Positions 1,120 to 34,300 of a DNA stretch of 37,056 nt are shown here, piece by piece. Location of the stretch: NCBI GenBank assembly GCA_048213135.1, contig PS015562.1:22565-59620 (forward strand), read 5' to 3'. The translations under genes were made by a program, and so were the position numbers. Within the stretch, counting starts at the first letter, position 1. Each line of letters begins with the position of its first letter. The DNA is from Reclinomonas americana ATCC 50394 (lineage: Eukaryota). Under the pieces are notes generated by a model. It worked only from the letters and a program-made list of their open reading frames with translations. It did no database searches and was not told the origin of the DNA.

Positions 1120-4100
1120 GCGGCGGCCACCCCCGCGGTGGCACCCGCGGAGGCNNNNNNNNNNNNNNNNNNNNTGACTGGCTTTCAACCCCAGCAGCAG
1201 CAGGGTGGTGCATTCCGCGGCGGTCGTGGTGGCGCACAAGCAGGTGCACAACGCGGTGCTCGACGTGGTGGTGGCGGTGGCGGCTTTCTGCAACATCAGC
1301 AACATCAGCAACAGACGCCTGGCAGGAGAATGACAGCCGCCGCTCCACCACTACCACCACAAGCAATGCCCGCGCCAGCGCAACCCGACGCCTCGTCTGG
1401 CAAGTGGGTGCGCGGGCGCGGCGGCGGTCCCACCGGCACTGCGTTTCGTGGTGGTCGTGGTGGTGGTGGCGATCGTGGTGGTGGCGGCAGAGGTGGTGGT
1501 CGTGGTCGTCCACCATTTCAAGCAGCAGCTGGAGGTGGTCCATCTCAAGTGACGGCTGCGGCTGCCGCAGGTGGTGGTGCCGTCCCGCGATGGCGCACCC
1601 TGAAAATGCTGTACTTGCCGGCCGGCGAGCAGTCGGAGGCGGCCGTGCGCCGTCTGCTGTCGCAGTTTGGGCGCCTGGAGAGTGTCTTTGTCAATGGCGA
1701 TCGTGCATTCGTGCGCTTCTCGCACGAGGGCTCGGCGCAGAATGCGTGCGCGACACTGGAGGCCAACGGCTATCGCGTGTTTGTGGTGCAGGATCGCATG
1801 AGCGATGCCGGTGGTGCCCCGGGAGCGTTTCCTGCCGGTCCGCAGCGCACCGCTGCGCCCATGACGGCCACGGGGTCCACAATCAAGGTGCTGCATGTGC
1901 CGGCTGTGATCAACAAGTACCAGGTATGGTGGAAGAAGAGTGGCACTGTGGCGAGCTCTTTTCTTGATTGCTTCGTTGCTTCCGTTTTCGTTTCTCTCGT
2001 TCGCTGTTCCTTTCGTCAACTGTCTTGCATCCACATGTGCTTGATATGCTATCTCTTCTATGTTTTCCCGTATGCTGGGTGGTGCAGGTTATCCTGAATC
2101 AGTCTCCCTCTGTCCATTTCCCCTTTCCACTCACTGTATCTCTCCATCTCTTTCTGTCATTCACTCGTTCTCTCTCTCTCTCTCCGTGTACGTGTGTGTG
2201 TGTCTCTCTCTCCTTTCTCTCTCTCTCCGCCCTCTTTCCCTCCCTCCCTATCTCTTTCCGTCATTCTGTCGCTCTCCCTTTTGTCACGATATCTGTATTT
2301 CAATGCCTTCGTCGCTACTACAAGTTCGTATCGCGTGATTTTTGGTGGTGCCTAATTCACCGTCTTCCGCTCTCTTTTGTCGCACACTTCTCTCATTTTG
2401 TCGTGTCTTTGTCGCATTCTACCCTCGCTCTGTCTTTCACTCTCATCCATTTTGATCGTTGCCTTGGTCGCTTATCTCTCCCTTTGCCGTCTCGTGTGTT
2501 TGACGGACATCGCGTTTGTTCTTCACCTGAGCAGTCTGCCTTTCTGTTATTCACGTTCTCTGCGTTACAAAGCACGTGTCGTTTCTCTGCTCGTTACATT
2601 TGCATGCCCACCCTCTCTCTCTCTCATTTATGCTCTGTGGTTGGTGGGCCTCCGCTCGCCACAGTTGCATTCCCAATGTTCTCTTTGTCGCCACATGTGT
2701 ATCATTACTCTTCCTGGCTGTCTCTGGCCCCTCTCCTCCCCTCCCCTTTCCCACCCTTCCCCATTCTCTCCCTTCCCCTTTCCCTTCTCCTCCCTTCCTT
2801 TTCTCCCCCCTCCCCTTTCCCTTCTCACCCCCTCATCCCTTCTCCCTCTTTCACAGTTTCTGAAAAACCACTTCGCGCAATTCGGCCTGGTAACCAGCGT
2901 CGTACCGAAACCCGCCGACGAGCGCGCCTTTGTCACCTTTGCCAATGCGGCGGACGCCGAGCTCGCACGCAAGGCCACCACGCACATTGGCGAGCACATG
3001 GTCACCGTGTACCTCGCGACCAGCGATCCCAACGCCGTAGGTGGTGGCGGTGCTGCTGCTGCGAGTCAGTGGCCGGCCGCCGCCGCCGCCGCAGCAGAGA
3101 GCGCACCTCGCCCTCCACCGAAGGTCACACTGAAACTTCAGCAGCAACAACAGCAACAGCAGAGACATCGCGCCGCGCCGACCATGGAGTATGCCGCCGA
3201 GGACCAAGAGGAGGAGGAGGCGGAGTATGGCGACGATGGGCAAGAGGTCTTGTTGCTCATCACACCCTTCCTCCTTGCCTTTTCTCACTCTCATCTTTAT
3301 AAAGCAGGCTGGTGGCTCCTCCTTCGGCTACGCCGCCGCCATGAAGGAAATGGGACGCAAGCCAATTGCGCCTGCTGCTGCTGCGGGTGGTGGCGGACGG
3401 CGTCAAGTGGCGCCGCACGTGTCGCAACCAATGGCCACCGAATCCAGCGACAACCCTGAATTGTTGCGCCAGTCGGACAACTTCAAGGCCGGCAACGTGG
3501 TCTCCACCAGCGGCAAGCGCCTCCTCAGCAACACGCTGAAGAACATCATGTATCACAACCGCAAGGTGGAGGAGTTTGGCCCGCCGCAGATGCTCGAGTT
3601 CAACGAGACCGACATTCAGGTGTACGATCCACGCGCTCCGCCCCCTGCCGCATCGGTAAGCGTCTGTTTCTCGCAGTGGTGATTATCCTGTTGTGCTCAT
3701 CCCTCTCTGGGCAAGCAGAGCGAGGCCGAGGAAGAGGAGGAGGCTGAAGAGGAAGAAGCGTACGCAGCTGAGGACGCCGAGTATGCGGAGGATGAAGACG
3801 AGGAGGAGTGGTACGAGGAAGGACTGGAGGAGGAGGAAGAGTACGTTGACGGTGACGAGACAGAGTACGAGGGCGTGGCAGGCGAGGACGAGGTGGACGG
3901 TGAAGGGGAGGAGGAGGAAGTAGCGGAGGAGGAAGATGCCGAGTACGCCGAGGATGTTGCGTGCGGTTTGAAGCCATGGATGATGAATCGCCCCTATTCT
4001 CACGTGTTCTTGATTGTAGACCGAGTACGCTGACGAGTATTACGAAGGAGATGAAGACAATGAGGGAGAGGAGGCCGCAGAGCAGGGCGATGGTGAAGAG

Positions 4101-4199
4101 GAGGAGTACTATGAGGGCGAAGAGGAGGAGGAAGCGGATGACGCCGACGCGGTGCAAGTGTATCGCCCTGGGTAAGCAACACACACACACACACACACA

Positions 4200-4235
<36 letters not shown>

Positions 4236-5084
4236 CTCGTCNNNNNNNNNNNNNNNNNNNNNNNNNNNNNNNNNNNNNNNNNNNNNNNNNNNNNNNNNNN
4301 NNNNNNNNNNNNNNNNNNNNNNNNNNNNNNNNNNNNNNNNNNNNNNNNNNNNNNNNNNNNNNNNNNNNNNNNNNNNNNNNNNNNNNNNNNNNNNNNNNNN
4401 NNNNNNNNNNNNNNNNNNNNNNNNNNNNNNNNNNNNNNNNNNNNNNNNNNNNNNNNNNNNNNNNNNNNNNNNNNNNNNNNNNNNNNNNNNNNNNNNNNNN
4501 NNNNNNNNNNNNNNNNNNNNNNNNNNNNNNNNNNNNNNNNNNNNNNNNNNNNNNNNNNNNNNNNNNNNNNNNNNNNNNNNNNNNNNNNNNNNNNNNNNNN
4601 NNNNNNNNNNNNNNNNNNNNNNNNNNNNNNNNNNNNNNNNNNNNNNNNNNNNNNNNNNNNNNNNNNNNNNNNNNNNNNNNNNNNNNNNNNNNNNNNNNNN
4701 NNNNNNNNNNNNNNNNNNNNNNNNNNNNNNNNNNNNNNNNNNNNNNNNNNNNNNNNNNNNNNNNNNNNNNNNNNNNNNNNNNNNNNNNNNNNNNNNNNNN
4801 NNNNNNNNNNNNNNNNNNNNNNNNNNNNNNNNNNNNNNNNNNNNNNNNNNNNNNNNNNNNNNNNNNNNNNNNNNNNNNNNNNNNNNNNNNNNNNNNNNNN
4901 NNNNNNNNNNNNNNNNNNNNNNNNNNNNNNNNNNNNNNNNNNNNNNNNNNNNNNNNNNNNNNNNNNNNNNNNNNNNNNNNNNNNNNNNNNNNNNNNNNNN
5001 NNNNNNNNNNNNNNNNNNNNNNNNNNNNNNNNNNNNNNNNNNNNNNNNNNNNNNNNNNNNNNNACACACACACACACACACACA

Positions 5085-5119
<35 letters not shown>

Positions 5120-8100
5120 CCTGTCCTCTTTCTTCATTCATCACCCTCTGCCCTCCGATTGTCTCCTTGTAGCACTTCTCTTTTCCAGCAATGCTCACAT
5201 TATCCCCCCCTGTCCTCTTTCTTCGTTCATCACCCTATGCCCTCCGATTGTCTTCTTATTTGCACTTCTGTTTTCCAACAGTGCTCACATTATCCTCCCC
5301 GTTCTCTCTCTCTCTCTCCCTGTCCTCTTGCTTCGTTCATCGCCCTTTCTGTCCTTTGATTGTCTTTTTGTGGCACTTCTCTTTTCCAGCAATGCTCACA
5401 GTCTCCTTCCTCCTCTCTCTCCTGTCCTCTTCCTTCGGTTAGCACCCTCTGCCCTCCGATTGTCTCCTTATTTGCACTTCTCTTTTCCAGCAATACTCAC
5501 ATTATCCTCCCCCCCTCCTCTCTCTCCCTGTCCTCTTTCTTCGTTTATCACCCTTTCTGCCCTTTGATTGTCTTTTTGTGGCACTTCTCTTTTCCAACAA
5601 TACTCACATTATCCTCCCCGTTCTCTCTCCCTGTCCTCTTTCTTCGTTCATCACCCTTCTGCCCTCCGATTGTCTCCTTATTTGCACTTCTCTTTCTCCA
5701 CGAAATGCTCACATTCTCTTTCGCCCTCTCCACCTCCCAGTGGCAAGCTACGCGAAACCGTGGCGCAGGCACTGGATGCGCGACCGGACAGCGGTCCGCA
5801 AATCATTCGGCCGACTGTCCGCGCGCCACGCGATCCGAACTCACCGGGCATGGTGCGCTCGCCCACCCTCAGTCGGCTCGGTCAATCGCCCGGCGGCGGC
5901 ACTCCCGATTCCGCCGCCACCGCCGCTGCCCCTACGAAGCGACTGGCCATTGTCACTCCTACGTCGTCGCCGTCAATCATTCCCGCTGCGGCTCCTCGTC
6001 GACTGTCACCGAAGAAGCCTCCAGCTGCCGTACCGCAGCCGAAGCCTGTGCGACCTTCCACTACTACTGTTACTACTGCTGCTGGATCACCGGCAGTTGG
6101 TGCCGCTCGTCGCGTCATTCCGCCCGTGCCGCCAGACCCGCATNNNNNNNNNNNNNNNNNNNNNNNNNNNNNNNNNNNNNNNNNNNNNNNNNNNNNNNNN
6201 NNNNNNNNNNNNNNNNNNNNNNNNNNNNNNNNNNNNNNNNNNNNNNNNNNNNNNNNNNNNNNNNNNNNNNNNNNNNNNNNNNNNNNNNNNNNNNNNNNNN
6301 NNNNNNNNNNNNNNNNNNNNNNNNNNNNNNNNNNNNNNNNNNNNNNNNNNNNNNNNNNNNNNNNNNNNNNNNNNNNNNNNNNNNNNNNNNNNNNNNNNNN
6401 NNNNNNNNNNNNNNNNNNNNNNNNNNNNNNNNNNNNNNNNNNNNNNNNNNNNNNNNNNNNNNNNNNNNNNNNNNNNNNNNNNNNNNNNNNNNNNNNNNNN
6501 NNNNNNNNNNNNNNNNNNNNNNNNNNNNNNNNNNNNNNNNNNNNNNNNNNNNNNNNNNNNNNNNNNNNNNNNNNNNNNNNNNNNNNNNNNNNNNNNNNNN
6601 NNNNNNNNNNNNNNNNNNNNNNNNNNNNNNNNNNNNNNNNNNNNNNNNNNNNNNNNNNNNNNNNNNNNNNNNNNNNNNNNNNNNNNNNNNNNNNNNNNNN
6701 NNNNNNNNNNNNNNNNNNNNNNNNNNNNNNNNNNNNNNNNNNNNNNNNNNNNNNNNNNNNNNNNNNNNNNNNNNNNNNNNNNNNNNNNNNNNNNNNNNNN
6801 NNNNNNNNNNNNNNNNNNNNNNNNNNNNNNNNNNNNNNNNNNNNNNNNNNNNNNNNNNAAGGGAGAAAGGGGGAAAGGGGTGGAAGGGGAAGGGTGTGGT
6901 GTGAGTGTATCTTCTATGCGTTTAATTGTCTCCAGAAGCAGTCTATTGCCCTTCTTGTGTTGTCCCTCTTCTATTCATGTGCATTGCCTCCTCATGTGCA
7001 TGTGGTTGCTTGAGTTGTTGTGTTCTCTCTCTCCCTCTCTCGCACTCTTTCTCGCTCTCTCTCTCTATGGCTGACTCGACTTCCCATGAACTTGCGCCAC
7101 TCTGCCGCTTCATTTGCCTTTCCCGTCGTTTTCCGACATCACTGCCCACCAATTCTCTCCTTGTCGCACAGTCTGTCGATATTCTTCTATTGTTTCTCTT
7201 CCTGTCAGTCTCGTTCGCTTCATGTGCAAACATGAATTGGAGTGAGGGAGGCCACCAAACACAGAATAGGATATCGTCTAACACGCAGAAGTGAATTTGG
7301 AGAGGCAGTTGCCAAAGTGAAGAAGCAGCAGACAGTGAAGAGTCTATCGCTTTCGTTCTCTCCTTCTGTGCGTGTGCGCACGCGTGGGTGTCGTTCTTCT
7401 CACTCTTCTTGCCCACTCAGCCTCGGTATTCTCTCTCTTCCTTAACTGTGTGCTTCTATATTCGAACTGCTTATGCCTTTCTGCCCCTTTGCTCCCGTTC
7501 TCTCCCTGTCCCACAGACTATCGCTCTTCTTGCATTACCTCTCTTCTCTACATTTTTCTTCTCCTCCTCATGTTCCTGCACATCTCACACCGCCTGCCTG
7601 TGTGAGTTGGTGTCTTCCTTCACAGTCAATTGTTTTTTTGTGCAATTGGCTCGTCATGTACTCACACACTCGGAGCAGTCTGGTGCTGTTCTTATTGGTT
7701 GTTAGTCTCTATCTCTGTCTCTCCCTCTTTACCCCCTCCCACTCTCTTTCACTCTCATATCGCCTCTCACTCCATTGCACCACCGCAGCTTCACGGCTTC
7801 ATCAGCGACCGCATGCGATCCATCCTTCAAGACTACCACTTCCAGTCGTGGGTGGACGAGCACGCGGCCGATGTGGTGCAAAGGATGGCTCGCTACTGTT
7901 GCGTCACTCTTTCCTTGCCCCACTATACTGTGCATGTGCTTACAATTTGCTGAACGATTCGCCCGGCAGTGATCCTCTCCGAGTACCAATGTCGACCGAT
8001 GCCCAAGTTCGATCTCGTGCTCAACATCAACCAACTGAGCAAGGCCCTGGTCGATCTGCGCGACATGTACAAGGACCTGGCGCTGTTTGGCGTGCGTGTG

Positions 8101-9922
8101 CCCCAGGAAAACGAGTTCCGCGCCTACAACATTCTGCACAACATGCCCGATCGCGTCGGCTTGCAGCAGGAGAGCGCGAGCTGGTCGGTGGAGACGTGGA
8201 GGTCGCCTGAGGTACGAATGCACACCGTTCCCCTTCTTACCCTTCCCCCTCCCTCACACCCTCCCCCTTTTCGCAGGTCGTGTTCGCCCTGAAAGTGGTC
8301 AGGGCCTTCTCCCTCAACAACTACGTCGAGTTCTTCCGGCTGGTGCGCGAGGCCACGCTGCTGGAGGCCTGCCTGCTCAGCAGATACTTTCGCGATGTGC
8401 GCGAGCGCGCCCTCAATCGCATTCGCAACGCCTACCCGAAAGTCAAGTTCCCGCTGGACGAACTGGCGGCCATTCTCGCGTTCGACTCGGTGGAGGCGGC
8501 GGCGGCGTTTTGTCGCGTGTACGACGGAGATGTGGACGAGGAGACGGGCACGGTGGAGTTGCAGCGGCTGCATCACACGCGCAGATTACTGGAGCGCGTG
8601 CAGGCCATCAAGGTGCAGCGTGGCGCGCCGTCATTGTCTATTGCTGAGTTCGGTCGCACTGTGGAGTTGGAGTCGATGGAGGAGATTGTCGAGTTTTGCC
8701 GAATGCACGATATTCGAACGCTCGGCGATCAGGAGTACCCCGATGCTGTGGAGCTGGAGTCTTTCAAAGGTACTTTCTGGAAGGGAGGAGATGGGTGTGA
8801 AGAGATTTGTTGACAGCCGTCACACAGTGCGCTATCCGGAAGCACCGCCCACGTACGAAATGATTGTGGACGAGCTGTTTGACGAGTCTGCGTCGACACG
8901 CGACGTTGTCTACGGTGCTCTGTCCCGTCAGGCACTGGGTGTGCCTTCTGCTTCTGCCGCTGCTGTGGCTGCTGCAGTGGTGCCGGCCACGGTGGAGTTT
9001 ACGTCGCCGCCGCCGTCGCTCACCAGCCTGCCGGTGGGTGCCGATGTGGAGATTCGCTGGCGCGTCTCTGGCGGCTCGGTGGGCGTGGTGTTGCTGGCCG
9101 TGTCGTCGGTGGCCACTGGCAGTCGCGTGCTACAGCTGGCGCGCGTGAATGGTGACACGACGCGTTCGTTCCCGTGGGATGTGCCGAGAGATGGGCGGTT
9201 GTTGCGGGAGGCGGTGTGCTTTACGTTGACGGCGGAGGAGACGAATGAGGTGGTGGCGAGGTCCGGGGCGATTAGCATTCGGCTTAGTTGCGCTGGTTGG
9301 GGGGAGGGAGGAGGTGGTGCGACAAGGTGACTCACTTGGGTTTGATAATAGGCTCGGTGGTGCGCGTGGTGGCGCCGATTGAGGGGGAGAAGTGGGTGCG
9401 GGATACGGATGTGCTGGTGCAGTGGGAGACGGAGGGTGAGTGGGGGGAGGGGAAGGGGGGAAGGGGGAAGGGGGAAGGGGGAAGGGAGGGAAAGAGGAAG
9501 GGGGAAGGGGAGGAAGGGAGGGAAAGGGGAAGGGGGAAGGGAGAGAAGGGAAGGTGTGTGTGTGTGTGAATTTGTTTGGTTTCGCCGATTGTGGATGGGA
9601 AGTGGGTGGAGCGAGGCATGCATTCAGTGGCGCAGGAAGAGACGGAGTATGCGCGTGAATAATGATGAGAGAAGAGGACAAATGAGGGGAGGAAAGAAGG
9701 AGAGAGTTGGAGAGCAAGGAGAAGAGGGTGGGGAGAGACGAGAAGGCGGTGTGCATGTGCGTTTGTTTCATTCGCAGAATATATGTGGATGAGAAGTGGT
9801 TGCGAGATTCGGATGTGCTGGTGCAGTGGGAGACGGGTGATGCGTGTGGGTAGCGAAAGGGAATGAGAGAGGACAAGGGAGAGGGGGTGAAGGGAAAGAG
9901 AGTAGAAAGAAGGGAACACAAG

Positions 9923-9953
<31 letters not shown>

Positions 9954-12900
9954 TTCACACGGTTCACCGACTTACGTGAAAGTGAGGGCGAGGCACAGAT
10001 TTTGTGGTGGGAGTCAGTGGGGAGGGAACATGCGAGAAGAGGGCGATAGTGATAGAGAGAAGAGGAGAGGAGGTAAGGGAGAGGGTTTATTGGAAAGGAG
10101 ATGAAGAAAGGTGGACGAGAAGATTTGTTGGCTGTTGCGCAAATGAGACGAGAATTACAAGATGTGTGTTGTGAATTCTCCACATCCCTGTCATTCGTTC
10201 ATATGTCTTGAATGCGGTACCATCACATCATCTCTCCCCTCCTCGGTGTCGTCTTCTGCTGCTTGTTCAACCAATTCTATTTCCCGTCATCGGTTCCTAT
10301 GTTCCTTCTTTCCCGTCTGTTTTTCCTCCTCCTCTCCCTCCTGACGTCATTTCTCGCCTTCCCTTCTTCGCCTTCTTCTCAACACTGCCCATTTCATGTG
10401 CGTCACAGGTGAGGTGAAGATCGTCACCGTCCAGCTCTCCGCGTACAGCGCTCGTGGCACCATGTTGCACACGACCATTGCCAACACTCTCGTTTTGGGC
10501 CGATCGACTGATGTTTATCACTACCTGGGCAATCAAGACGGCACCGATGCGCACGAGCTGCTGTGGCATGTGCCGGTCACGCTTGGTGTGTCCACTACGG
10601 CGCTCTCGATTGACGCCCACAGTGGACTGAACGAGATATTGCAGGTGCTCTCGGTGCGACACGGGTGTGCGTGGAGATAGTGGATATCAGGAACCCGTCC
10701 GTGCGTGCCGCGTCGTCGCCGTTCCACATTCCCGACGCGGTCAAGCCTGTCGTTGGTGTGTGCTAACGTATTGTAGGAAGGGAAGGCAGTTGTGGAGACT
10801 TACTGTTCTGTTGGGCGCAGTGCCACCCACTCCTTCGCCAGTGCCGGCAAGGTGCGATGTTGCATCGCATCCCTGATTTCGATTTGTTGTGCTCACTTGG
10901 CTTTCACGCAGTCCGGTCAAGTCAAAGGCCGCTACTTTTGTTGGTGAGGATGTTGCATGTCACTAGCCACCTCCCTCGTTGCTGACCTGAGTGCTTCATC
11001 AGTTCCGCCAATGTCGCCCACCAGCCCAGCTCAACCTGGTGAGCTCTCTTCCTGTTCTCTCACTCATTGCACTTACTCATCGCCGCCACCACAGCATCGC
11101 CAGTGCCCGCACTGTCATTCTCGGAGATCCTGCAAAAGTCACAACAGCAACGCGTTGCACCTAGTCCGGCATCGCCGTCACCCAAATCACCCAAGGCGCG
11201 CGCACCACTCTTCCAGGCACCAGCTGACGAAGAAGAGGAAGAAGAGGAGGAGGTGGCGGCCGAGGAAGAGGAAGATGAGGGCATGCCGCAAGTGGAGTCG
11301 TTCCGCGCTCCGCAGGCAGACTTGGAGGTTGAATTTGTGCACCGCAAGGCCGAGACGGAGGTCAGTACAAGTGGCAGGGTGCAATACGCTTGGCTTTTCT
11401 CATCTCGTGTCAATCACCGCAGGCGGAGCGCTTCCAGCGCCTCATTCGGGAGCAGCTGCAGGAGGAGGAGAGGCAGCGACAGGAGCACACGCGGCAGGTG
11501 GAGGAGCGGCGGAAACGGGATCGTCAGGCGGCGATGGTGGCGCGGCAGTCGGTGGGGGCGCGCGATTTGCAGCATTTGGTGGAGGCCATGGAGTCGCCGG
11601 AGAGTGGGAGGTTGCGATTGAGGTCGAGGTGAGCGCATGGGGGGGAGAAGGGAGATAAGAGGGAAGAGAGGGGAAGACGTGGAGAGAGGGGAAGAAAGGG
11701 GCGAAGAAATGAGTGGGAGCGAAGCAAAGACGATCATGCACGTGTTGCTGTTGTTGTTCAGTGAGCACATCTTTTGTGTGTGGTGAGAATAACATGATGC
11801 GAACAGCAAGCAGACGAGAATTAGCGCATTGGAAGTCGTCGTGGCACCTGTGGTGCTGGCAGTGTCATCTCTGACCCACACAATCAGCGAATATGTGAGT
11901 GAGTGAGTGAGTGCCTGAATGAAGGAATGAGCGATTGAGAGGGAGAGAGAGAATGAGTGAGTGATTGAGAGGGAGAGAGAAAATGAGTGAGTGAGTGCGC
12001 GAGTGTGTTTGTGTGGGTGTGTGTGTGAGAGAGAGAGAGAGAGTGAGTGAGTGAGCGAGTGAGCGAGCGAGTGAGTGGACGCGAGTGTTGAGTGATTGTG
12101 TGTCCGTGCGAGTGCTCGTGCGTGGCTTCTTTTATCTCTAACGTATTAGCACTAGAGGAAGTTGTGCACGGTGTGTGATGCGTTCTGCGCCTTCCTCTCT
12201 CGCTTTCGCTCTGCATGTGTGAGAGAGTAAGTGAGTGTGGTATGTGGAGAGAGGGTCAGCTGCGCTCGGCGGTTGAGATCAATGCTTCATATGCGACCGC
12301 AACATGACTCTTGTCGTCTTCTATTCATCTCTCTGTTTTCGTGCTCGCAGAAGAATCACCACCGGCGACGAAGCTGACGAACTGGGAGCGATGATGGACG
12401 CCCGGCTGCGAGTCAACCTGGCGCGCTGCTTCCGTGTGGCACTGAAGCAGCGAGTGTTGCCTGACAGCGACAATCTTTTCTTGAAGGTGCGTGATGCTCA
12501 GCCTCCCAGTGTTTGTGCCAATCCTCACCTTTCGCGCGCGCGCTAGATGGCCATTGTGCAAGGCGCGGCGGCGCCTGTCGCCTCCGGTGGCGACGGAGAG
12601 GTGGACAGTCCGTTTGAACGCCTGTGCCGGCGTGTCAACCTCAGCTTCCTGCAACGCGAGGTGCACACGGCGCTGGACGATCCAAACGTGCTTGCCCTGT
12701 GCAGTGTGCCGGCCGCCCTGCGCCACGTGCACGTGTCGATTGTGCGCGTGTCGCAGAGTGATTTGCGCACGGATAGGCAGCTGAGCACGCAGCTGTTGTC
12801 GCACGCCTCGGTGCTGTTGTACGTGGTGGATACGATGTTGACGGAGGAGACGAGGTTTGTGGTACAAGATCTGATTTGTGGGAGAAATTTGATTGACTTG

Positions 12901-13084
12901 TTGCTGCTGTATCCAGCGCGGCCGTGGAGAGCGCGATTGGACAGCAGCTGGGCGACATTGAGCGGATGATCAACGACTTTGCCACCGACTACATTGAGCG
13001 CATGACGCCGCAAGTGGCCGTGGTGGTGGAGGGGCCTGAGGTTAGTGATATGATGACTCTGTGCTGCATGAGAGAGAGAGAGAG

Positions 13085-13128
<44 letters not shown>

Positions 13129-17650: not shown

Positions 17651-18560
17651 ATAGTAGTTGGTAAGGGCGGAGGGGGAAGGGAGATCGGTTAGATTCAAGA
17701 CAGCGCGCAGGCTTCTTGTGTTCGTACTCTGCACTCAGCAACTACGTCACTGTACTCAAGCTGCATCGGAGCGCAGTATTCTCCTCTTACGTAGAGACCG
17801 CAGAAAACGCCAACTGTCGATGTTGAGTCTTTATTCGTTCTTCCCTCATTTCTAGTAACGACCCCTCCACTGCCATCACTGTGCAATAGACTACAACAAC
17901 GACAACACTGTGTCTGTGGTCAACGTCGCCTTCAACCCTCAGTCCTCTTGTGTCTCACTGTGCGGCCACCGGTCAGAGGCTGTCACAGTATTTGAAATCA
18001 CTGCTGCGACAACAATGACAACAACAACAACAACAACAACCGCCCCTACCACCAGCCACTACCGATATGAACCTCACCAACAACATGACAAGCTCTCTCC
18101 TGTTTCAACCACGCCACCAACGTTCGATCGCGACACCACCACTGTCTGCTTTTGCTTTGCTTGCTTCATGGATCCGGACCCGGCTTTGCTTTGTTTGCAT
18201 GGCTTATGACCTTTTCCCGAATTCGATGTGCCGTGTACGATCGCAGAAAACGCTATGCGTCTATGCAAGCGCGTCAAATCCACTGTTCAACCACGCTTAT
18301 GCGCATGCGCTGCGCTGCGGTGAAAATCGCAGTTCGGAGCTCCGAGAGCGAACACACACACACGCATGGAACCTGCTGCTGCTTCAAGACTGGTGTTTGT
18401 GTTGATGTTTTGAATGGTGGGACTTGACCAGTTGCATTTGCTAGCGCGGCGGTCCACCAAAGGCCTTCACAAGCAAGATCTTCCTCCGGATCCACTGCCC
18501 AACGTAATCAATGAACCACAGCGGACTCGCAACTTTCCCTGCATCGCGCGTGAGCCATAC

Positions 18561-23154: not shown

Positions 23155-23506
23155 AATGAAGTTTTGGTGGTGTCCGTTCTTGTTTCTGCGTCGTTTCAGG
23201 CTGACTACTAAGCAATCTGCAGCATCCATTCAGTAGTAGCTTCAAGAGGATGGCCATGCCCAGTATGGGCCTCTTCTCGCGACGAAATCACAAGAGACAA
23301 TTTATAATTATTCTCGACGTCAAAGAAGTTTGCTGAACGCATTGCATTCACAAACCCCCGCATTCCACCAGCTTACACCACATCCCACTATCATACTCTC
23401 CTGCACACACGCACAGAATCAGCAGCACAACGTGACTTCGACATTGATACCCACAGGACAACTTGAGTTTCTGCGGACGATTTGTGACAGAGTGAGCGAC
23501 TTGTGA

Positions 23507-23668
23507 ATGAGTGCAGCAGCTGGTGCTCCCTCAGGCAGCGCGCCTGCGGAGGAAACCAATGAGCAGGTGCGTGCGCGCGCGTGACAGAGTGTGAGAGTGA
23601 GAGGACATGTCCATGGTTTGTGCGCTCAGTGTGTTTCTCACTGTTTTGTTTGTTTGCTTGCTTTCGTG

Positions 23669-23704
<36 letters not shown>

Positions 23705-26700
23705 TTAGAAGGATGAATTGAGATTGCAGCTGCGCGATCGGAATCAAAGAGCGGCCTCATTGCGACCAAGTACGTCATTCACACACACAAGAGAGAGAGG
23801 CATTCACACACACACACACAGTCACTCACTCTCACACTCTCTCTCTCACTCACTCACTCACTCACTCACTCACTCACTCACTNNNNNNNNNNNNNNNNNN
23901 NNCTCACTCACTCACTCACTCTTTCTCTCACTCACTCACTCACTCACTCACTCACTCACTCGCTCACTCACTCACTCACTCACTCTGTCTCTCACTCACA
24001 GTTGCTTCTTTGTCATCGCTCTCTTGCTGTCCTCTGACTTCTCCTTCTCACCATCCCCCTTCCTTCCTTTCACCCTCCCTCCTTTCTCACTCACCCTTTC
24101 CCTGATCCCCCTCCTCTCCTTCCCTCCCCTCCTTCCCTCTCTCACAGCCCCCACCGAGATGCGCAACCGCGAAACCAACATCAAAAAGAACTCGGCCTTT
24201 GTGCGCAAACTACGCACCATCACCCGCGAGAGCGCACTCGACGTGGCCACCGACATGCGCCTGCTCAACCTCACCCGCTACATCTCCGAGGCCGTCACCA
24301 ACCTCGCCGAGGCCAAGCTGCGCGTGCAAGACATTATGCCCGTGGTGCAGCTGGTCACCGAGTTCAATTGCACGTTTGAGGAGTTTGCCGAGCAGGTCAC
24401 GGCGTTGTGGGTGCGCGGGTTTGAGCCGCTGAGCACAGGTGCGGGAGAGGAGGGGAAGTGAATCCTTCTGACGCGAGAGAGAGAGAGAGAGAGGGAGAAA
24501 GAAGGGAGAGTGATTGATGTTGACCAGTGAGAGGGCGACTGTCTCACTCACTCCTGCACACACTCTTGCACATTAGTTCACTCTCTCAGGTACACTCTGC
24601 TGCTTGCCCTCTTCTCGTCTTCAACGCATCAATTGTTGCTTTGATCTCGCGAGATCCGCGATATCTCTGCGCACTCATCTCTCTCTCTCCTCTCATGTTG
24701 TCTGCTTCTCTTCCGATGCATTGCTCTTCTCGCGTGCTGTCGCTTTCCATCGTCGGTTCGACACATGCCTCTGTGGTCCTGCGAGAGGCTGTCTGTTCCG
24801 TCTGTTATACATCGCCACACTCTGCTGCTTGCCTTCCTCTTGTCTTCAACGCATCGATCACTGCTTCTTTGGTCTCTCGCTATTCTCGATATCTCTGCGC
24901 ACTTATATTTCTCTCTCTCTCTCTCCTCTCTCTCTCTCCCCTCTCATGTTGTCTGCTTCTCTTCCGATGCATTGCTCTTCTCGCGTGCTGTCGCTTTCCA
25001 TCGTCGGTTCAACACATGCCTCTATGGTCCTGCGAGAGGTTGTCTGTTCCGTCTTGGTATACATCTCCACACTCTGCTGCTTGCCTTCCTCCTGTCTTCA
25101 ACGCATCAATCACCGCTTCCTTGGTCTCTCGTGAATCTCGATATCTCGATATCTCAGCGCACTTACCTCTCTCTCTCTCTCTCTCTTTCCTCTCATCTTG
25201 TCTGGGCATTTCTCTTCTCGCATACTGTCGCTTTCCTTCCTCGGTTCAACACATGCCTCTGTGGTCCTGCGAGAGGTTGTCCGTTCCGTCTTTTTATACA
25301 TCGCCACACTCTGCTGCTTGCCTTCTTCTTGTCGTCCTCCCTCTTCAACGCATCAGTCACTGCTCCCTTGGTCTCTCGTTATTCTCTCTCTTACTTCTCA
25401 TCTTGTCTGGGCATTTCTCTTCTCGCACGCTGTCGCTTTCCATCGTCGGTTCGACACATGCCTCGGTGGTCCTGCGAGAGGTTGTCTGTTCCGTCTTTTA
25501 TACATCGCCACACTCTGCTGCTTGCCTTCTTCTTGTCGTCCTCCCTCTTCAACGCATCAATCGCTGCTTCTCGGATATCTCGTGATTGTCGATATCTCAG
25601 CGCACTTACCTCTCTCTCCCCTCTCGTGTTGTGTCCTCCTCTTTCGATGAATTGTTGTTGTCGCGTGTTGTCGCATTCCTCCCTCGGTTCAACACATGCC
25701 TCTGTGGTCCTGCGTTGTCTACTCACTTGCCGCTTTCCTCTGAGGTTGTCTGTTCCTTCTTTGATACATGGCCACACTCTGCTGCTCTCGTCCTCTGCCC
25801 CTCTGGCTCTTTTTTCATTCTCGATATCTATGCGCACTCGTCTCTTATGCGACACCCGCGCAGGTGGAACGGAGACACTGGAGGACTTCAATGCGTCGTC
25901 GTCACGGAGGCGAGTGATGGTGCGCCTGTTGGCCGACTTGCAGCTGATTGGCATTCTGCGCGACGACAAGATCATGTCGCGTATCGTTCGCTCGCTGGTG
26001 CGGTGCTGTCGCGTGTGCGTGCGTCGATGGTGCCTGACGTGTGATCACACAGATCAAGTACTCGTGTGGTGGGCGCGAGGAAACCATGGCCGGCTTGTCG
26101 GTGGTGCTGCCGTTCCTCCGTGCGTACTCGCCGTACTTTACCGATTTTGCGGCCGAGTCGCGCACGCCGCAGCAGCAGGTCAGTGGTGTGGAGAAGGGAG
26201 GGGGAAGGAGGGGAAGGGAGAGGGTGAGGGAAGGGGGTGGAGAGGAAGGGAGGTGGAGAGAAAGAGAGAGGCTGAAGGGAGGGAAAGGGAGAAGGGAGGT
26301 TGAGGGGAATTGAGAAGGGAGGAGAATGGGAAAGGGAGAGGGAGAGGAGAGAAGTGGACAGCAGATCAGGTCGGTTTCTGTCTCGTGTCTCGCCTCCCGC
26401 CTCTCGCCTCTCGCCTCTCGCCTCTCGTCACTTGCCTTTCGCCTCTCGTCTCTCGTCTCTCGTCTCTCGCCTCTCACCCCTCCCCTCCCTTGCCTCTCAC
26501 CCTTCCCCTTTCTCCCCTTCCCTCACCCCTTCCCTCCCCTCCCCTTCCATCTCCCGCTCACCCTTCTCCCTCCCCCTTCCCCCTCTCCCCACAGGACCTC
26601 GCCTCCGCCGTCACCGCCGAAACCCGACAACAACTCACCAAGACCTACCAATTCCTGTACAAGCACGCCTGCACCGTCCTCGTGGCCGTCTTCCAAGACC

Positions 26701-29700
26701 TGCGCCAGCTCGAAGCCGAGCACACACACATGATGGGCACGCGTGGCGAGCTGACGTCGGAGAGCAAGACAAAGCACCAGAATCTGACGCAGTTGTTTGA
26801 GAAGCTGCAGACGCACTTGACCACGTTGCGTCTGTTGCTCGACAGCGGTGTGTTTATTGTTGCGAGTGCTTACTTTCTTTACTGTTAGCATGGCGGAGAT
26901 TTTGGGAGTGGAGTTGGAGCTGCCCGAGTTGCGCGAGTCCGACGTGACGCGTGTCGAGGCGTCGCAGGGTCCGCACGTGGCCACGCATTCGTCGTTTGCC
27001 AAGCGAGTTGCGTTGGCGAGAGTCACGCGTGCAGCGTACATGGAGGCTGAATTTCGTGCTGATGAACAGGCGGCGGAGGACGACTCGGGTCCCTTCGAGG
27101 ACTACGACACGCGCGTATTCTACGAGGACATCATGGATCTGAAGACGCGCCTGCCAGCCGTGCTGCTGGGCCTGACGCCGAATGACAAGAGCACAGCGTC
27201 GGGCAGTGGCGCGTCGTCTTCCGAGGGGGGTGAGGAGGAAGGGCGGAGCGAGCCGGTTGATGTGTCGGCGGCTCTTAAATTAGAGGTGAGTCACCAAACT
27301 CAAGAGTGCGCCAGCATGAGAGCGCTCACAACAACGCAGGTGGCGGAGGGTCTGGTGTCGGATGCAACGGCGAGCAGTGCGGGTATCTCACCACTGGATG
27401 ACATTATCGGACAGCTGCCGAAAGCATGCTCTCGCGATTTGATTGACAAGCTGACGCTGGAGTTTTGCCGTCACAACTCGGCCAATGCGAGGAAGAAGCT
27501 TCTGAGAGTTGCGTGGCAAGGGGGAAGGGTGTGAGGGAAGGGAGCGGGAGTTGAGATATGTGGAGAGAAGGGGACAGGAGAGGTGAGATAGTGCCTGCAA
27601 GCTAAAAGAGAATGGTTGCGAAAGAGAAGGAGTGTGGGAGAGACAGAGGGTGTGCGAGTTGCGAAGGCAAGGAGTGTTACAAAAACAAGGGCATGTGACA
27701 CACGCACACCAGCAGACAGACACTTACACATGCACTCTTTGTATCTGACACAAACGGACACTCACTGTCTGCTTGTCGTCACGTTATGATGCGTTGACGT
27801 AGACTTGTCGCACAATTGTGTTTCTTGTTGTTCAGTTTCTTTGTCGCGTGCATGTATATTCACGTTGTTTTGTCTCCTCCCTCTTTCCCTCTCCCTCTCC
27901 CTCACCCTCTCCCTCCCCCTCTCCCCCCTCCCTCTCCCCCTTACCCTCCCCCCTCTCCCTCCCCCTTTCCCCCATCCAGGCGCTCTACGGCGTCCCCCGC
28001 AACCAACTCGAGCTCCTGCCGTACTACGCCCGCATGGTGGCCACACTGCATCCCTACTACAAGGACATGGCGCCGGCACTGCAGGCCAAGTTGGAGGACG
28101 AGTTCGACGCGCTCTTCCGCGAGAAGAGCCAAACGAACATTGAGTCGAAAATCAAGGTTCTTGTCCTCTCCAGATGCTTGTGAATCCTATGTGCTCGGCA
28201 ACCGACCACCTCCCGCAGAACATCCGCTTCATGTGCGAGCTGGTCAAGTTCGGGTGTGTGAACGGCAATGCCGTGCTCAACCTGTTCCAGCGGTGCCTCG
28301 ACGATTTCTCGCATCACAATATTGATGTGACGTGTGCGCTGCTGGATTGTGCTGGCCGTTTCTTGAATCGGAAGCCAGAGACGTCGCAGGTGGGTCGCTA
28401 GAGGGGGATGATTGGCGCTGCGCTTACTGACATGATTCCTCTGCAGCGCTGTGGCAACCTGATTCAGCACATGTTGCGCCTGAAGGGCATCAAGAATCTC
28501 GACCCGCGCTACGAGACCATGGTGGAGAATGCGTTCTACTCGGCAGTTCCGCCGGCGAACTCGGTGTCGGCGAGGCGGTATCGTGAGGCGGCGAGACATC
28601 CGTTGTTGGTGAGTTTGAGAGAGAGAGAGAGACAGAAAGAGAGAGAATAAGGGACTGAGTGGCGAAAGAAGCACACAGCATGATGGTCGAAGAGAGAAGA
28701 TAGAGAACGACAGGTCACGGGCAATGCGAGAGAGGGCAAACTGCTCGCCTGCTGAATTCGGGCCACTTGATTCCGCTCTCTTTTTCTTTTTCTCTCAGTG
28801 CTGTCTTTCATTCCTTTTCTCTTTTCTCTCTTCACCGTCTCTGCTCTCTTTCTTGCTGTCTCTCACTCTCTTTCTCTCCGATTCCTTGTTTTAACCACTC
28901 TTTCGGTGTTTCCCTCCCTCTCTTCTAGCACTCTGTTGTCTCTCACTCTCTCACTCTTTTTGTTTCCGTCTCTCTGTTGCACTCCTTTCTCTCTCTCTCT
29001 GTCTTTCTTCATTTCGTTCCATTTCTCTTTAATATCTTCACCGTCTCTGCTCTCTTCACTATCTCTGCTCTCACTCTCTTTCTCTCCGATTCCTTGTTTT
29101 GACCTCACTCTTTCGGTGTTTCTCTCCCTCTCTTCTATCTCTGTTCTCTCGCACTCTCTCATGCACTTTGTTTCCGTCTCTCTGTTGCACTCCTCTCTCT
29201 ATCTCTCTATCTTTCTTCTTTTCGTTCCCTTTCTCTTTAACTCTCTCTGTTTCCTCTCTTTCTGTTTCGCTCTCTCTCTCTCTTTGTGTGTGTGCGTTTG
29301 CTTGCATCTTTTCGTTGACCACCATTTCCGTGCAGCGCTACGTGGAGCACCTGGTGCACACGGTGCTCAACCGCCGCACGGCCGGCTTCGTGCTGAAGCA
29401 GTTGCAGTCGCTGCCGTGGACGGCGACTGTTATTCCGTGGCCAGCTGCCGAGGTGTTGCATGCGCCGCCGGCTGTTGCGTCTCTGTGGATATTTAGATGC
29501 GTGGCTGTCTGGAAACGCTCACTGCTTCGCGCAGGAGGAGAGGGCGGTGTTGACGGGGCCACAGTTGGTGGAGGCTGTTTCTCGTATTCTGCTGAAGGTG
29601 ACACGCGCGCGCTTTAATCAGCTGCACGTCGTGGCGTCCATCATTGCATCGCTGGCCAAGAAGCAGCAGGAGGTGAGGCAACCGATTCACGGGAGCTCCT

Positions 29701-30280
29701 TGTGGCAGGAGCTCATTCAAGCCTGAATTTTGCAGATCTGTACGGCGATTGTGGACGATCTGTGGGCGTTTTTGCGCCGCGGCCTCGAGTCGCCTGGGCA
29801 ATACAACATGCAGCAGCGCCTGGTGATGAGCTGCAAATTGCTTGGCGAGCTGTACAACTATCAGACCCTGGACAGCCGTGCCGTGTTCGATGCCCTGTAC
29901 GCTTTCATCCGCGCGTCGCCCGAGTGTGATCCGCCAGAAGTATGTCTCTGCTTGTCGCGACCGATTTGGTTGCAGTTTGCTGACATTCATTGTGCGCAGG
30001 ATACGTTCCGCATTCGCATGGTGTGTGCGCTGCTGGACACGGTCGGCCTCTACCTGAATGGACGCACAAATATGGACATGTTGAAGGTGACTGTGGTGAT
30101 GGAGGAGTCTGCATGTTGTCTATCTGTCTCTGTCTATCGTGATTGTGTGTTGGTGCGTGTCCTAGTGCTCTGTCGCCGTGTCTGTTTCTTGTGTCGATGC
30201 TTTCCTGGGATTGCTCACTTCTGTTTCTCCTGCTTTCATTCTTTCTTCTTTTTCTTTATCTCTCTCTCTCTCTTTCTCTT

Positions 30281-30329
<49 letters not shown>

Positions 30330-31351
30330 GTCGTCTCGTACTACGTCTACGTCTACGTACGTACGTCGTCGTACGTACGTACGTACGTAACTACGTTACG
30401 TTCGTTACNNNNNNNNNNNNNNNNNNNNNNNNNNNNNNNNNNNNNNNNNNNNNNNNNNNNNNNNNNNNNNNNNNNNNNNNNNNNNNNNNNNNNNNNNNNN
30501 NNNNNNNNNNNNNNNNNNNNNNNNNNNNNNNNNNNNNNNNNNNNNNNNNNNNNNNNNNNNNNNNNNNNNNNNNNNNNNNNNNNNNNNNNNNNNNNNNNNN
30601 NNNNNNNNNNNNNNNNNNNNNNNNNNNNNNNNNNNNNNNNNNNNNNNNNNNNNNNNNNNNNNNNNNNNNNNNNNNNNNNNNNNNNNNNNNNNNNNNNNNN
30701 NNNNNNNNNNNNNNNNNNNNNNNNNNNNNNNNNNNNNNNNNNNNNNNNNNNNNNNNNNNNNNNNNNNNNNNNNNNNNNNNNNNNNNNNNNNNNNNNNNNN
30801 NNNNNNNNNNNNNNNNNNNNNNNNNNNNNNNNNNNNNNNNNNNNNNNNNNNNNNNNNNNNNNNNNNNNNNNNNNNNNNNNNNNNNNNNNNNNNNNNNNNN
30901 NNNNNNNNNNNNNNNNNNNNNNNNNNNNNNNNNNNNNNNNNNNNNNNNNNNNNNNNNNNNNNNNNNNNNNNNNNNNNNNNNNNNNNNNNNNNNNNNNNNN
31001 NNNNNNNNNNNNNNNNNNNNNNNNNNNNNNNNNNNNNNNNNNNNNNNNNNNNNNNNNNNNNNNNNNNNNNNNNNNNNNNNNNNNNNNNNNNNNNNNNNNN
31101 NNNNNNNNNNNNNNNNNNNNNNNNNNNNNNNNNNNNNNNNNNNNNNNNNNNNNNNNNNNNNNNNNNNNNNNNNNNNNNNNNNNNNNNNNGTGTGTGTGGT
31201 GGTGTCGTCGTCGTCGTCGTCTCGTCGTCCGTCGTCGTTCGTTTCGTTTCGTTTGTTCGTCGTGTCTTCCTTCGGTCGTTGTCTCTCTCTTCTTCTTCTC
31301 TCTTCTCTTCTTTCTTTCTTTTCTTTTCTTCTTCTCTCTCTCTCTTCTTCT

Positions 31352-31396
<45 letters not shown>

Positions 31397-34300
31397 CCCG
31401 TGTATGTCTGCCACCTACGTGCACTCGATCTATGTGCACGCTGTGTCTTGAGTTTTATTCTGTGTCCGTTTCATTTGTCTGTGCTGCAAGCTGGGATATG
31501 TGTGAGTCATAGTATGCGGTGCTGTCATCTCTCGTTCATGTTTCTTTTTTTGATTTCTCTTCCGCCTCTTGTCCGCTTTGGAATGCAACCAGCCTCTGCC
31601 ACTGCGCTGTGCTGTCGCTCGCTCTTCTGTCGTGATGTTTGTGTCTCTGTTCCTATGCACGTGATTCAGCTGTGCATTCGCTGTGCTCTGCCAACAGATA
31701 GCGGTATTGTAATTTTGTCTCTCTCTATGTGTATGCTTGTCCCGATTCTCTCTCTCTCTCTCTCTCTCAATGGCACACGGTCTCTTCCTCTCTCCCTCTC
31801 TTTGCCTATCTGACACTCACCCTTCTCCCTCTCCCCCCGCAGATCTGGCTCGCCCACTTCTCCGTCTACGTGCGTGAATCTCGCGCACACCCGCTACCCG
31901 TGGACGTGGAAATGGCGTTGACCGACACACTGGAGAATCTGCCGCTTGCGCCACCGGCGACGCCGCAAGAGGCCTACGCCCTGTTGCAGTCGACGTACTC
32001 GCAACTGCATCCCACACTGGCCATGTGCGTGTCAAGCATTTCACTCACCTGTTTCTTGGTTGCCTCTCTGCTGACTCTCTTGTGCTCACAGGGCGCGCTC
32101 ACCTGACGCCGAGTGGCCAGCCCCAGTTCGTCTTTCACGCATCTCTACTGTGTGCACTGATCCCGTCACCCGCCAGCACGGTACTTTTCCATGTCTGTAC
32201 AATGCGTGTGTCTCCCTTGCTGAAGCGTCGCTTTAGATGGCCTGCGATGGTGGCCAGTGGTGCCGACGGACGTGCCGGAGCTGGATACCGATGATGACGA
32301 TGGCAATGCCGCAGAGGCGAGTGCAATCCTCTGAAGGTGGGAGCACAGGGCGCCTTATTGACCGCGTGTCGCAGGGTTACGAGGAGGAATTGGAGGAGTT
32401 GGAGGTGCTGGCACAGGAGGCTGCGCAGATGGACTCGGCAGTGGGCATGGGCGACGATGATGTGGAGGGTGCCGATGACGATGAGGAAGACGATGACGAT
32501 GAAGACGACGACGATGAGGATGACGACGACGAAGATGAAGAGGAGGAGGGTGAAGATGACGAGGTTGAGGGCGACGAGCAAAATGTGGACGCTGAAGAGG
32601 GAGCAGAGGAGGGCGAGGAGGAGGACGAAGAGGACGAGGATGATGACAATGACGATGATGATGACGACGACGACGAAGAGGAGGAAGTTGGTGAGGCATC
32701 AGGAAGTCCGTGAGAGAAATAGAACGACTCCTTTCCTCACCTGCGCGCGTGACTAGATGACACCATTGCGGAGCGCGCTCGTGCTCGCGAGGCGGCGCAC
32801 TTGGCGGAGGCCGCCGAGTGGGATGCGTTGTTGGCGTCCGTCACGGCCGACGAGGTGACGACGAGGCGGAAGGAGATGTCGGGACCGGGAGTGCACTCGC
32901 AGCACGTGGTGTTGTCGCATGAAGGTAGGAAGGGGAAGGGTGTATAGGGGGAAGGGAGTATGGGGGAAAGCAAAAAGTGGAGTGGCAGAGAATGGAGCAA
33001 GACGGCGAGGTTTTGCAGGTGTTGAGGGGACGGGAGTATGGGGGAAAGCGAAAAAGTGGAGTGGCAGAGGAAGGAACAAGACGGCGAGGTGTTGCAGGTG
33101 TTGGGGGGAAGGGAGTATGGGGTAAGGCAGGAAGTGGAGTGGCAGAGGAAGGAGCAAGACGGCGAGGTGTTGCAGGTGTTAAGGGGAAGGGAGTATGGGG
33201 GAAAGCAAGAAGTGGAGTGGCAGAGAGAGGAGCACGACGGCGAGGTGTTGCAGGTGTTAAGGGGAAGGGAGTGTGGGGTAAGGCAAGAAGTGGAGTGGCA
33301 GAGAATGGAGCAAGACGGCGAGGTGTTGCAGGTGTTAAGGGGAAGGGAGTATGGAGGAATGCAAAAAAAGTGGAGTGGCAGAGGAAGGAGCAAGACGGCG
33401 AGGTGTTGCAGGTGTTAAGGGGAAGGGAGTATGTGGCAGGAAGGAGCAAGACGGGGGAAACCAAAAAAAATTGAGTGGCAGAGGAAGGAGCAAGACGTCC
33501 TGTTTCTTTCGTGCCTCAACTGACTCTTCGTGTGCCCTCCCAGAGCGTGATCTTGCCAATGGCGACGACGAAGCATTCCCTCCGGCTCCGTCACAGTCGG
33601 CCGCTTCGTGGATGGGCACGAGCGGAACCGTGCTGCTGCAGGTGCGCTTCTTTCATTTTTCTTCCCCTTCCCCGTGCATTCATCCTCACATCTGCGGAAC
33701 AGGGTCTGAACGCACGCAACATTCTCGGTGGCGGCCGCGGTCGTTCTCGAGGCGTGGTGGTGCCGCAAGTGGCCAAGGTCATGCGACGCCCAGGAGCAGC
33801 GACGGCGGCAGCTGCTTCCGCGGCATCGGCGTCGACACCAACACCGGTATGTCTATCCTCCATGTCTCTCTTTCGTACAATCCTTGCTGATCTAACTCCC
33901 TCGAAGGACGATGCCACGGCCTCTCCCATCACACCGAGTGCTGCCGATGTCGAGGGTGGCGAGGGTAGTGCGAGCGACGTTGCGTGCATGAGTCAGCAAG
34001 TCCTTCTTCGGTTTCCTTTTTCTCATTGATTGCACAGCTCTCGGCAACGCCATNNNNNNNNNNNNNNNNNNNNNNNNNNNNNNNNNNNNNNNNNNNNNNN
34101 NNNNNNNNNNNNNNNNNNNNNNNNNNNNNNNNNNNNNNNNNNNNNNNNNNNNNNNNNNNNNNNNNNNNNNNNNNNNNNNNNNNNNNNNNNNNNNNNNNNN
34201 NNNNNNNNNNNNNNNNNNNNNNNNNNNNNNNNNNNNNNNNNNNNNNNNNNNNNNNNNNNNNNNNNNNNNNNNNNNNNNNNNNNNNNNNNNNNNNNNNNNN

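Follow-up and report, generated by a model that had tools for sequence, protein, structure and literature searches.

The GTTGCG donor word and its frequency

In a window of 37,056 bases of eukaryotic nuclear DNA from Reclinomonas americana ATCC 50394 (the whole stretch analysed; GenBank assembly GCA_048213135.1, contig PS015562.1, positions 22,565 to 59,620), the hexamer GTTGCG, in most cases extended to GTTGCGT, seems to behave as a recurrent 5' splice-site (donor) word serving about one in seven introns. The window carries three intron-rich genes, all on the + strand, for a GANP/SAC3-like protein, a NACHT-WD40 protein and UPF2 (regulator of nonsense transcripts 2). Their exons are GC-rich and their introns CT-rich, often with repeats, and ten runs of N interrupt the sequence. 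The evidence consists of the motif itself, the open frames of the gene models, homology that fixes two of the junctions, an in-phase enrichment and ordinary branch sites. We consider the GTTGCG(T) pattern in this window to be real and unlikely to have arisen by chance. The placement of the best-supported donors is independent of the motif.

Gene models were curated by hand from the reading frames, and each was checked for an unbroken frame. They comprise 54 introns in total. The GANP/SAC3-like gene, modelled in two parts, has 5 in the first and 20 in the second; 6 belong to the NACHT-WD40 gene and 23 to the UPF2 gene. Automatic dynamic-programming parses, run with no donor model, with a self-trained one or with a crude one, were set aside since they were too noisy and contained many plainly wrong calls.

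A previous sequence-only reading had drawn attention to eight inferred donors, at 3956, 7898, 9287, 15727, 26825, 27508, 29474 and 33979. All eight indeed read GTTGCG, and seven of them GTTGCGT; the exception, and the only one without T at +7, is 9287 (GTTGCGC). The preceding exonic bases are, in this order, T, T, A, T, C, A, T and C. The manual counts given at the time (8 of about 56 donors, 8 of about 13 lacking G at the last exonic position, -1, and none of about 43 with it) were reproduced in our models as 8/54, 8/14 and 0/40, respectively, and the difference between donors without and with -1 G is significant (Fisher p = 2.9e-6). GTTGCG is the commonest donor hexamer in the models, followed by GTGCGT (5), GTGAGT (4) and GTGAGG (4).

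In the whole window GTTGCG occurs 37 times, 24 of them on the + strand, compared to 21.4 expected from shuffles, and 37 was reached in 0 of 100 shuffles. GTTGCGT was found 13 times instead of the expected 4.75, with 12 occurrences on the + strand and one on the - strand. On the + strand, GTTGCG makes up 8 of 54 donors but 16 of the 2414 other GTs (p = 1.7e-8), a comparison that depends on the donor choices made.

A phase test is independent of choosing donors by motif. It took in all GTs around the 54 exon ends, from 45 nucleotides (nt) upstream of the modelled donor to the first in-frame stop, but no further than 200 nt downstream or 44 nt short of the acceptor. GTTGCG was present at 9 of the 141 in-phase GTs and at none of the 203 out-of-phase GTs (one-sided Fisher p = 0.00028). 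Eight of these nine are the sites listed above and the ninth is 11611, a GTTGCG preceded by G. It is in phase with the ordinary donor 11629, which follows 18 nt downstream, and could serve as an alternative to it.

The claim that GTTGCG is seen only when the -1 base is not G holds in part. Compared to the other donors it stands, since -1 G occurs in 0/8 GTTGCG donors and in 40/46 others. Compared to background it is unremarkable: 3 of the 16 non-donor GTTGCG on the + strand are preceded by G, so that the probability of finding 0/8 is about 0.19, the eighth power of 13/16. What can safely be said is that the GTTGCG class shows no selection for -1 G.

Placement of the eight donors

Removal of the introns keeps the frame in the stop-free models. 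Two of the eight sites are placed by homology (27508 and 7898) and two by frame (15727 and 3956), three are compatible with the frame but not unique, and one is unplaceable. All eight introns are on the + strand; in the donors given below, a slash marks the exon-intron boundary.

The intron 27508..27979 (472 nt, donor aga/GTTGCGTG) lies at the start of the second MIF4G domain of UPF2. In a gap-free alignment to the human UPF2 chain 4cek_A, residue 156 ends the upstream exon and residue 157 begins the downstream exon, and use of the sole in-phase rival, 27529 (agg/GTGTGAGG), would add 7 residues at this point. The intron 7898..7969 (72 nt, donor act/GTTGCGTC) is situated within the SAC3/GANP domain, and 7898 is the only in-phase GT at its exon end. 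Scored with a hidden Markov model built from 97 of 150 homologues, it was the best of 11 candidate junctions, reaching 209.1 bits compared to 208.2 bits for a GC donor at 7901 and 199.4 bits for the next GT. Moreover, the flanking exons match positions 82-116 and 118-197 of the Pfam SAC3_GANP profile, and the single position between these matches is taken up by the split codon. A sequencing error converting GGTGCGT to GTTGCGT was rejected as a source of the motif, since an intron start one base later would break the frame at both 27508 and 7898. Constraint by protein homology had previously been claimed for a third donor, 26825, as well; this part of the claim was not upheld, as no PDB or Pfam UPF2 alignment to the exons flanking 26825 reaches the junction.

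The intron 15727..16848 (1122 nt including an N run, donor att/GTTGCGTA) is placed by the reading frame. The exon that follows scores +14.4 bits in the frame set by a phase-1 donor, compared to -25.0 and -24.2 bits in the other two frames, and 15727 is the first phase-1 GT, the later ones being located in CT-rich intron sequence. A phmmer search with the GANP tail around this site against the 150 homologues gave 0 matches, and the N run of this intron may contain a hidden exon. The intron 3956..4019 (64 nt, donor gat/GTTGCGTG, acceptor TAG), with CTCAC at -21 from its 3' end, is required by a frame change in the acidic exon; the sole other in-phase GT is at 3920 (gaa/GTAGCG).

For three further introns the frame is kept and an in-phase rival exists. 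The intron 9287..9351 (65 nt, donor tta/GTTGCGCT, acceptor TAG) competes with a 56-nt intron starting at 9296 (ctg/GTTGGGGG), so that its donor is not uniquely determined. Likewise, 26825..26888 (64 nt, donor cac/GTTGCGTC, acceptor TAG) competes with a 55-nt intron from 26834 (tct/GTTGCTCG), and 29474..29534 (61 nt, donor gct/GTTGCGTC) with an 82-nt intron from 29453 (gag/GTGTTGCA); the exons flanking 29474 have no PDB or Pfam match. The putative intron 33979..34037 (59 nt, donor gac/GTTGCGTG) was called from its motif and length only: just 16 bases of the downstream exon precede an N run, which leaves its phase unconstrained, and the GTs at 33965, 33968, 33992 and 33984 (the last read directly from the sequence) are equally allowed.

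GTTGCG introns resemble U2-type introns

All eight GTTGCG introns have GT...AG ends. When the last 45 nt were scanned, a branch-like word CTNAY was found 16-40 nt from the 3' end in 8/8 of them and in 35/46 other introns, and the mean pyrimidine content is 0.66 in both classes. The six short GTTGCG introns measure 59-72 nt, and the 31 other short introns span 54-80 nt. The exact U12 branch word TCCTTRAC is present in 0/8 GTTGCG introns; with up to 2 mismatches it is about equally common in both classes (5/8 compared to 19/46 ordinary introns). By these features the GTTGCG introns look like ordinary U2-type introns with an odd donor. Descent from an introner family was rejected, by eye only, as no similarity apart from the donor word is shared among the six short introns.

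Recognition of the donor word

As the explanation of this donor class we tentatively prefer a displaced register on the ordinary splicing machinery, assisted by a lineage-specific helper. In this model most of the eight sites would be real 5' splice sites of U2-type GT-AG introns, and GUUGCGU would be a second, nearly fixed donor word that replaces the local G/GUGMGU consensus. The observation that GTTGCGT, as a string, is the local G/GTGCGT displaced by one base was confirmed. In the displaced word the G and U usually at +5 and +6 would stand at +6 and +7, and the first G of the intron would take the place of the last G of the exon. U1 small nuclear RNA (snRNA), and later U6, would pair one base further into the intron, and cleavage would stay before the first GU. 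With the U1 base for -1 G already occupied, the exonic G would not be needed. We infer that the loss of the -1 G preference fits such a +1-shifted register, in which no preference is expected because the +1 G occupies the U1 partner of -1 G, and that it argues against a simple +3 bulge. Such a helper is assumed because textbook U1 would pair too weakly unaided; it could consist of contacts made by proteins, or of a U1 with some change in its 5' end.

Pairing strength was predicted with RNAduplex for donors from -3 to +9 and the textbook U1 5' end given in Table 2 of Tan 2016 (PMC4856993), a model without proteins or pseudouridine. The 46 other donors reached a mean of -7.0 kcal/mol. Among them, the six without -1 G ranged from -1.7 to -5.7 kcal/mol, and these weak donors imply that the organism tolerates weak sites; the GTTGCG sites are the weakest group.

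Several observations weigh against the displaced register. The eight GTTGCG sites are predicted to pair at +0.5 to -2.0 kcal/mol (mean -0.4) as their best value in any register, although the organism's own U1 may differ from the textbook sequence. A plain shifted register is insufficient alone because of this value, and the suggestion of the sequence-only reading that shifted or bulged U1/U6 recognition may serve a mainstream intron class was not supported in that form: plain pairing of either kind to a standard U1 would not account for constitutive use of the sites. The invariant C at +5 would be mismatched in the shifted register. Furthermore, GTTGAG is found at 0/54 donors, though GTGAG is about as common as GTGCG among the ordinary donors. 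The -1 bases (four T, two A, two C) do not follow what extended shifted pairing would favour, which is A at -1 and C at -2. Four of the eight donors, 9287, 26825, 29474 and 33979, are not uniquely placed, and three GTTGCGT inside exons (19748, 20047 and 27007) are apparently unspliced. Finally, the class rests on the genomic sequence of one 37-kb window.

In ordinary U1 recognition, exonic and intronic donor positions compensate each other. A similar relation is seen here, as the non-GTTGCG donors without -1 G mostly carry strong intronic words (GTGCGT twice, GTACGT, GTATGT and GTGAGT; only GTGACC is weaker). GTTGCG, in which both -1 G and +5 G are missing, cannot be explained by such compensation in the canonical register.

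Human cells are known to use both shifted and bulged U1 registers, though rarely (Tan 2016, PMC4856993; reviewed in PMC9311317). The GTTGCG donors resemble the human shifted-register sites (Roca and Krainer 2009, as drawn in Figure 1B of Tan 2016, PMC4856993) in being GT-AG sites in which the consensus is displaced by one base towards the intron and the GU is followed by a U, in being cleaved at the first GU and in not needing the exonic G. They differ in frequency and in predicted strength. According to Tan 2016 (PMC4856993), validated noncanonical registers make up 1.5% of human 5' splice sites, compared to 0.36% for U12-type introns and 0.9% for GC-AG sites, whereas the word described here is nearly invariant and occupies 8/54 donors. 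The human sites keep a long run of pairs, the shifted-register example in Table 2 of Tan 2016 (PMC4856993) being listed at -6.5 kcal/mol, in contrast to about -0.4 kcal/mol with standard U1 here. Full-text literature searches for GTTGCG, GTTGCGT or GUUGCG combined with splicing terms returned only primers and unrelated uses among the matches listed, and the donor word is undescribed there.

A doubtful but considerable alternative is a dedicated partner that reads all seven bases, either a variant U1-like snRNA or a U1 with a changed 5' end complementary to GUUGCGU, so that two 5' splice-site codes would operate on one major spliceosome. A word that is nearly invariant over seven positions (7/8 identical) and lacks an exon consensus has the pattern of full base pairing, and standard U1 pairs with it at about zero. 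The invariant +5 C together with the absence of GTTGAG hints at a partner reading the C, and would fit one with G at that position. Precedents exist for parts of this scheme: humans have variant U1 genes (PMC3561869), and in Physarum, where U12-type introns became common, the U12 snRNA is reported to have co-evolved with its motif (Larue, Elias and Roy, bioRxiv 10.1101/2020.10.12.336362). The Physarum set is a precedent both for a second class becoming common and for co-evolution of snRNA and motif. However, an Rfam scan for snRNA genes gave 0 matches in the window, and U6 would still need to accept the site. Moreover, we know of no organism in which a second U1 with a changed 5' end serves a large intron class. 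In its most specific form, this alternative would have two donor codes on the major spliceosome, the usual G/GUGMGU and a fixed GUUGCGU in about 15% of introns, the latter recognised, in a register shifted by one base towards the intron and with no exon contact, by a U1-like snRNA of its own or by U1 with an altered 5' end; we regard this form as unlikely.

Bulged pairing on ordinary U1 and U6, with +1 G and +2 U paired, +3 U bulged out and GCGU pairing like consensus positions +3 to +6, appears quite improbable. It would account for the composition of the word, since GU-U-GCGU is the local GUGCGU plus one U, and it would leave the catalytic GU in place for U6. The +2/+3 bulge has been validated in human (Roca et al. 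2012, as summarised in Tan 2016, PMC4856993), and the GTTGCG donors share with such sites an additional U that separates the GU from the remaining consensus. However, a bulge leaves the U1 base opposite -1 free, so that -1 G stays useful and should be favoured even more, unlike the 0/8 seen here. In addition, the predicted energy of about zero indicates no stable duplex, exon-side pairing is lacking, and the human +2/+3 class is tiny (68 sites predicted, 54 after curation; Tan 2016, PMC4856993).

It is improbable, too, that there is no class at all, with a few GTTGCG donors being real and the rest being chance in-phase occurrences chosen by eye, a pattern that would fade genome-wide. In favour of this explanation, four donors are not uniquely placed, the base composition at -1 of the eight sites resembles background, GTTGCG is composed of common codons, and in the three automatic parses no more than 1 to 4 of the eight sites were called with GTTGCG. 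Against this, the four best-placed sites are fixed by homology or frame and not by the motif. As GTTGCG constitutes about 1% of the + strand GTs (24/2467), four independent chance hits would have a probability near 1e-8. Neither the contrast of 9 in-phase with 0 out-of-phase occurrences nor the strand bias of 12 to 1 for GTTGCGT would be expected from chance.

A transformed and expanded minor-spliceosome class can practically be dismissed. A long fixed donor word without exon consensus is shared with U12-type introns, and the Physarum minor class has expanded with changed signals (bioRxiv 10.1101/2020.10.12.336362), but GTTGCG(T) is unlike the donor RTATCCTT, the U12 branch word is missing in its exact form and not enriched in its relaxed one, and the 3' halves, with the CTNAY word in every case, are the same as in ordinary introns here. 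The remaining probability belongs to something else.

Genes and other features of the window

The GANP/SAC3-like gene (1120..17650, + strand) was identified by stop-free models, Pfam hits and homologues, and contains RGG, RRM and acidic regions, a SAC3_GANP domain and a long tail. Its model consists of two parts, 1120-6143 and 7789-17055, with N runs between them, and four of its 25 modelled introns have GTTGCG donors. The Pfam families RRM_1 and SAC3_GANP match single exons. For the 164-residue SAC3 exon, 427 homologues were found at E <= 0.001; of the 150 listed, eight were looked up, and the best named ones were animal GANP/xmas-2 proteins, with one amoebozoan transcript. The RGG/RRM/acidic portion (1120-6143) and the SAC3 portion (7789-17650) probably represent one GANP/xmas-2-type gene split by N runs, because RRM and SAC3 domains sit in one protein in the best homologues.

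Between two N runs, the segment 17076-17376 scores as coding when read on the - strand (+53.2 bits, free of stops) and as non-coding in all + frames; it is probably a contig that was scaffolded in the wrong orientation, or else belongs to a - strand gene located within the GANP-like tail. The intron 9436-10408 (973 nt) holds an exon-like copy, at 9790-9838, of the end (9386-9435) of the exon 9352-9435, including a donor-like GT. This copy could be a duplicated or alternative exon, and it contains a G-preceded GTTGCG at 9799. The intron 14470-15614 contains two copies of a repeat, and in each copy there is a GTTGCGT (14966 and 15128) that is not used as a donor.

The NACHT-WD40 gene (18414..23154, + strand) is supported by a stop-free model with Pfam NACHT and WD40 matches, and none of its 6 modelled introns has a GTTGCG donor. 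Two of them, 19388-19444 (57 nt) and 19653-19718 (66 nt), are multiples of three without an in-frame stop, so that their retention keeps the frame. In the single 2.9-kb WD40 exon, 9 GTGAGT and 4 GTGCGT are present (21505-22897) and none is spliced in the model. Eight of the nine GTGAGT are preceded by T and one by A. This implies that a strong intronic hexamer without -1 G is not sufficient here.

The UPF2 gene (23507..35141, + strand) was assigned from a stop-free model with PDB and Pfam matches, namely to the human UPF2 chains 4cek_A and 4cem_A and to the MIF4G and Upf2 domains. Protein homology searches with the UPF2 exons gave no match. A metagenome search detected 3 distant UPF2 loci, the best of which (L002) is without an intron at the position of 27508. 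The 23 modelled introns of the UPF2 gene in the window include four with GTTGCG donors and one of the GC-AG type. The latter, 32317-32374, has a strong donor context (gag/GCGAGT), which is the only frame-keeping phase-0 donor besides a GT at 32272.

Two further odd donors, 3247 (gag/GTCTTGT) and 28157 (aag/GTTCTTGT), have CTTGT after the GT in common, differ by one extra T and are both preceded by -1 G. The long introns and the region upstream of the first exon contain tandem repeats (615-1033, 5119-5715, 24658-25333, 28806-29240 and 32939-33433), whose units measure 78 to 251 nt and show 79-90% matches. On the - strand, 36279-36430 looks like a last coding exon with its stop near 36279, and GA-rich repeats then extend to the end of the window.

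Biological significance

Noncanonical U1 registers are a fringe phenomenon in humans (Tan 2016, PMC4856993). If RNA data confirm the donors described here, R. americana would possess an unusually common class of atypical splice sites, with one fixed atypical word for about one intron in seven, including introns in the conserved housekeeping genes for UPF2 and GANP. In practical terms, such exon ends would be set wrongly by gene-prediction programs that rely on a single donor matrix. If true, this would mean that the major spliceosome can arrive at a second, equally stable way of recognising donors. The organism would then offer a natural system for studying the tolerance of U1 and U6 for a displaced register, the co-evolution of snRNAs with splice signals, and the separation of cleavage-site choice from U1 pairing.

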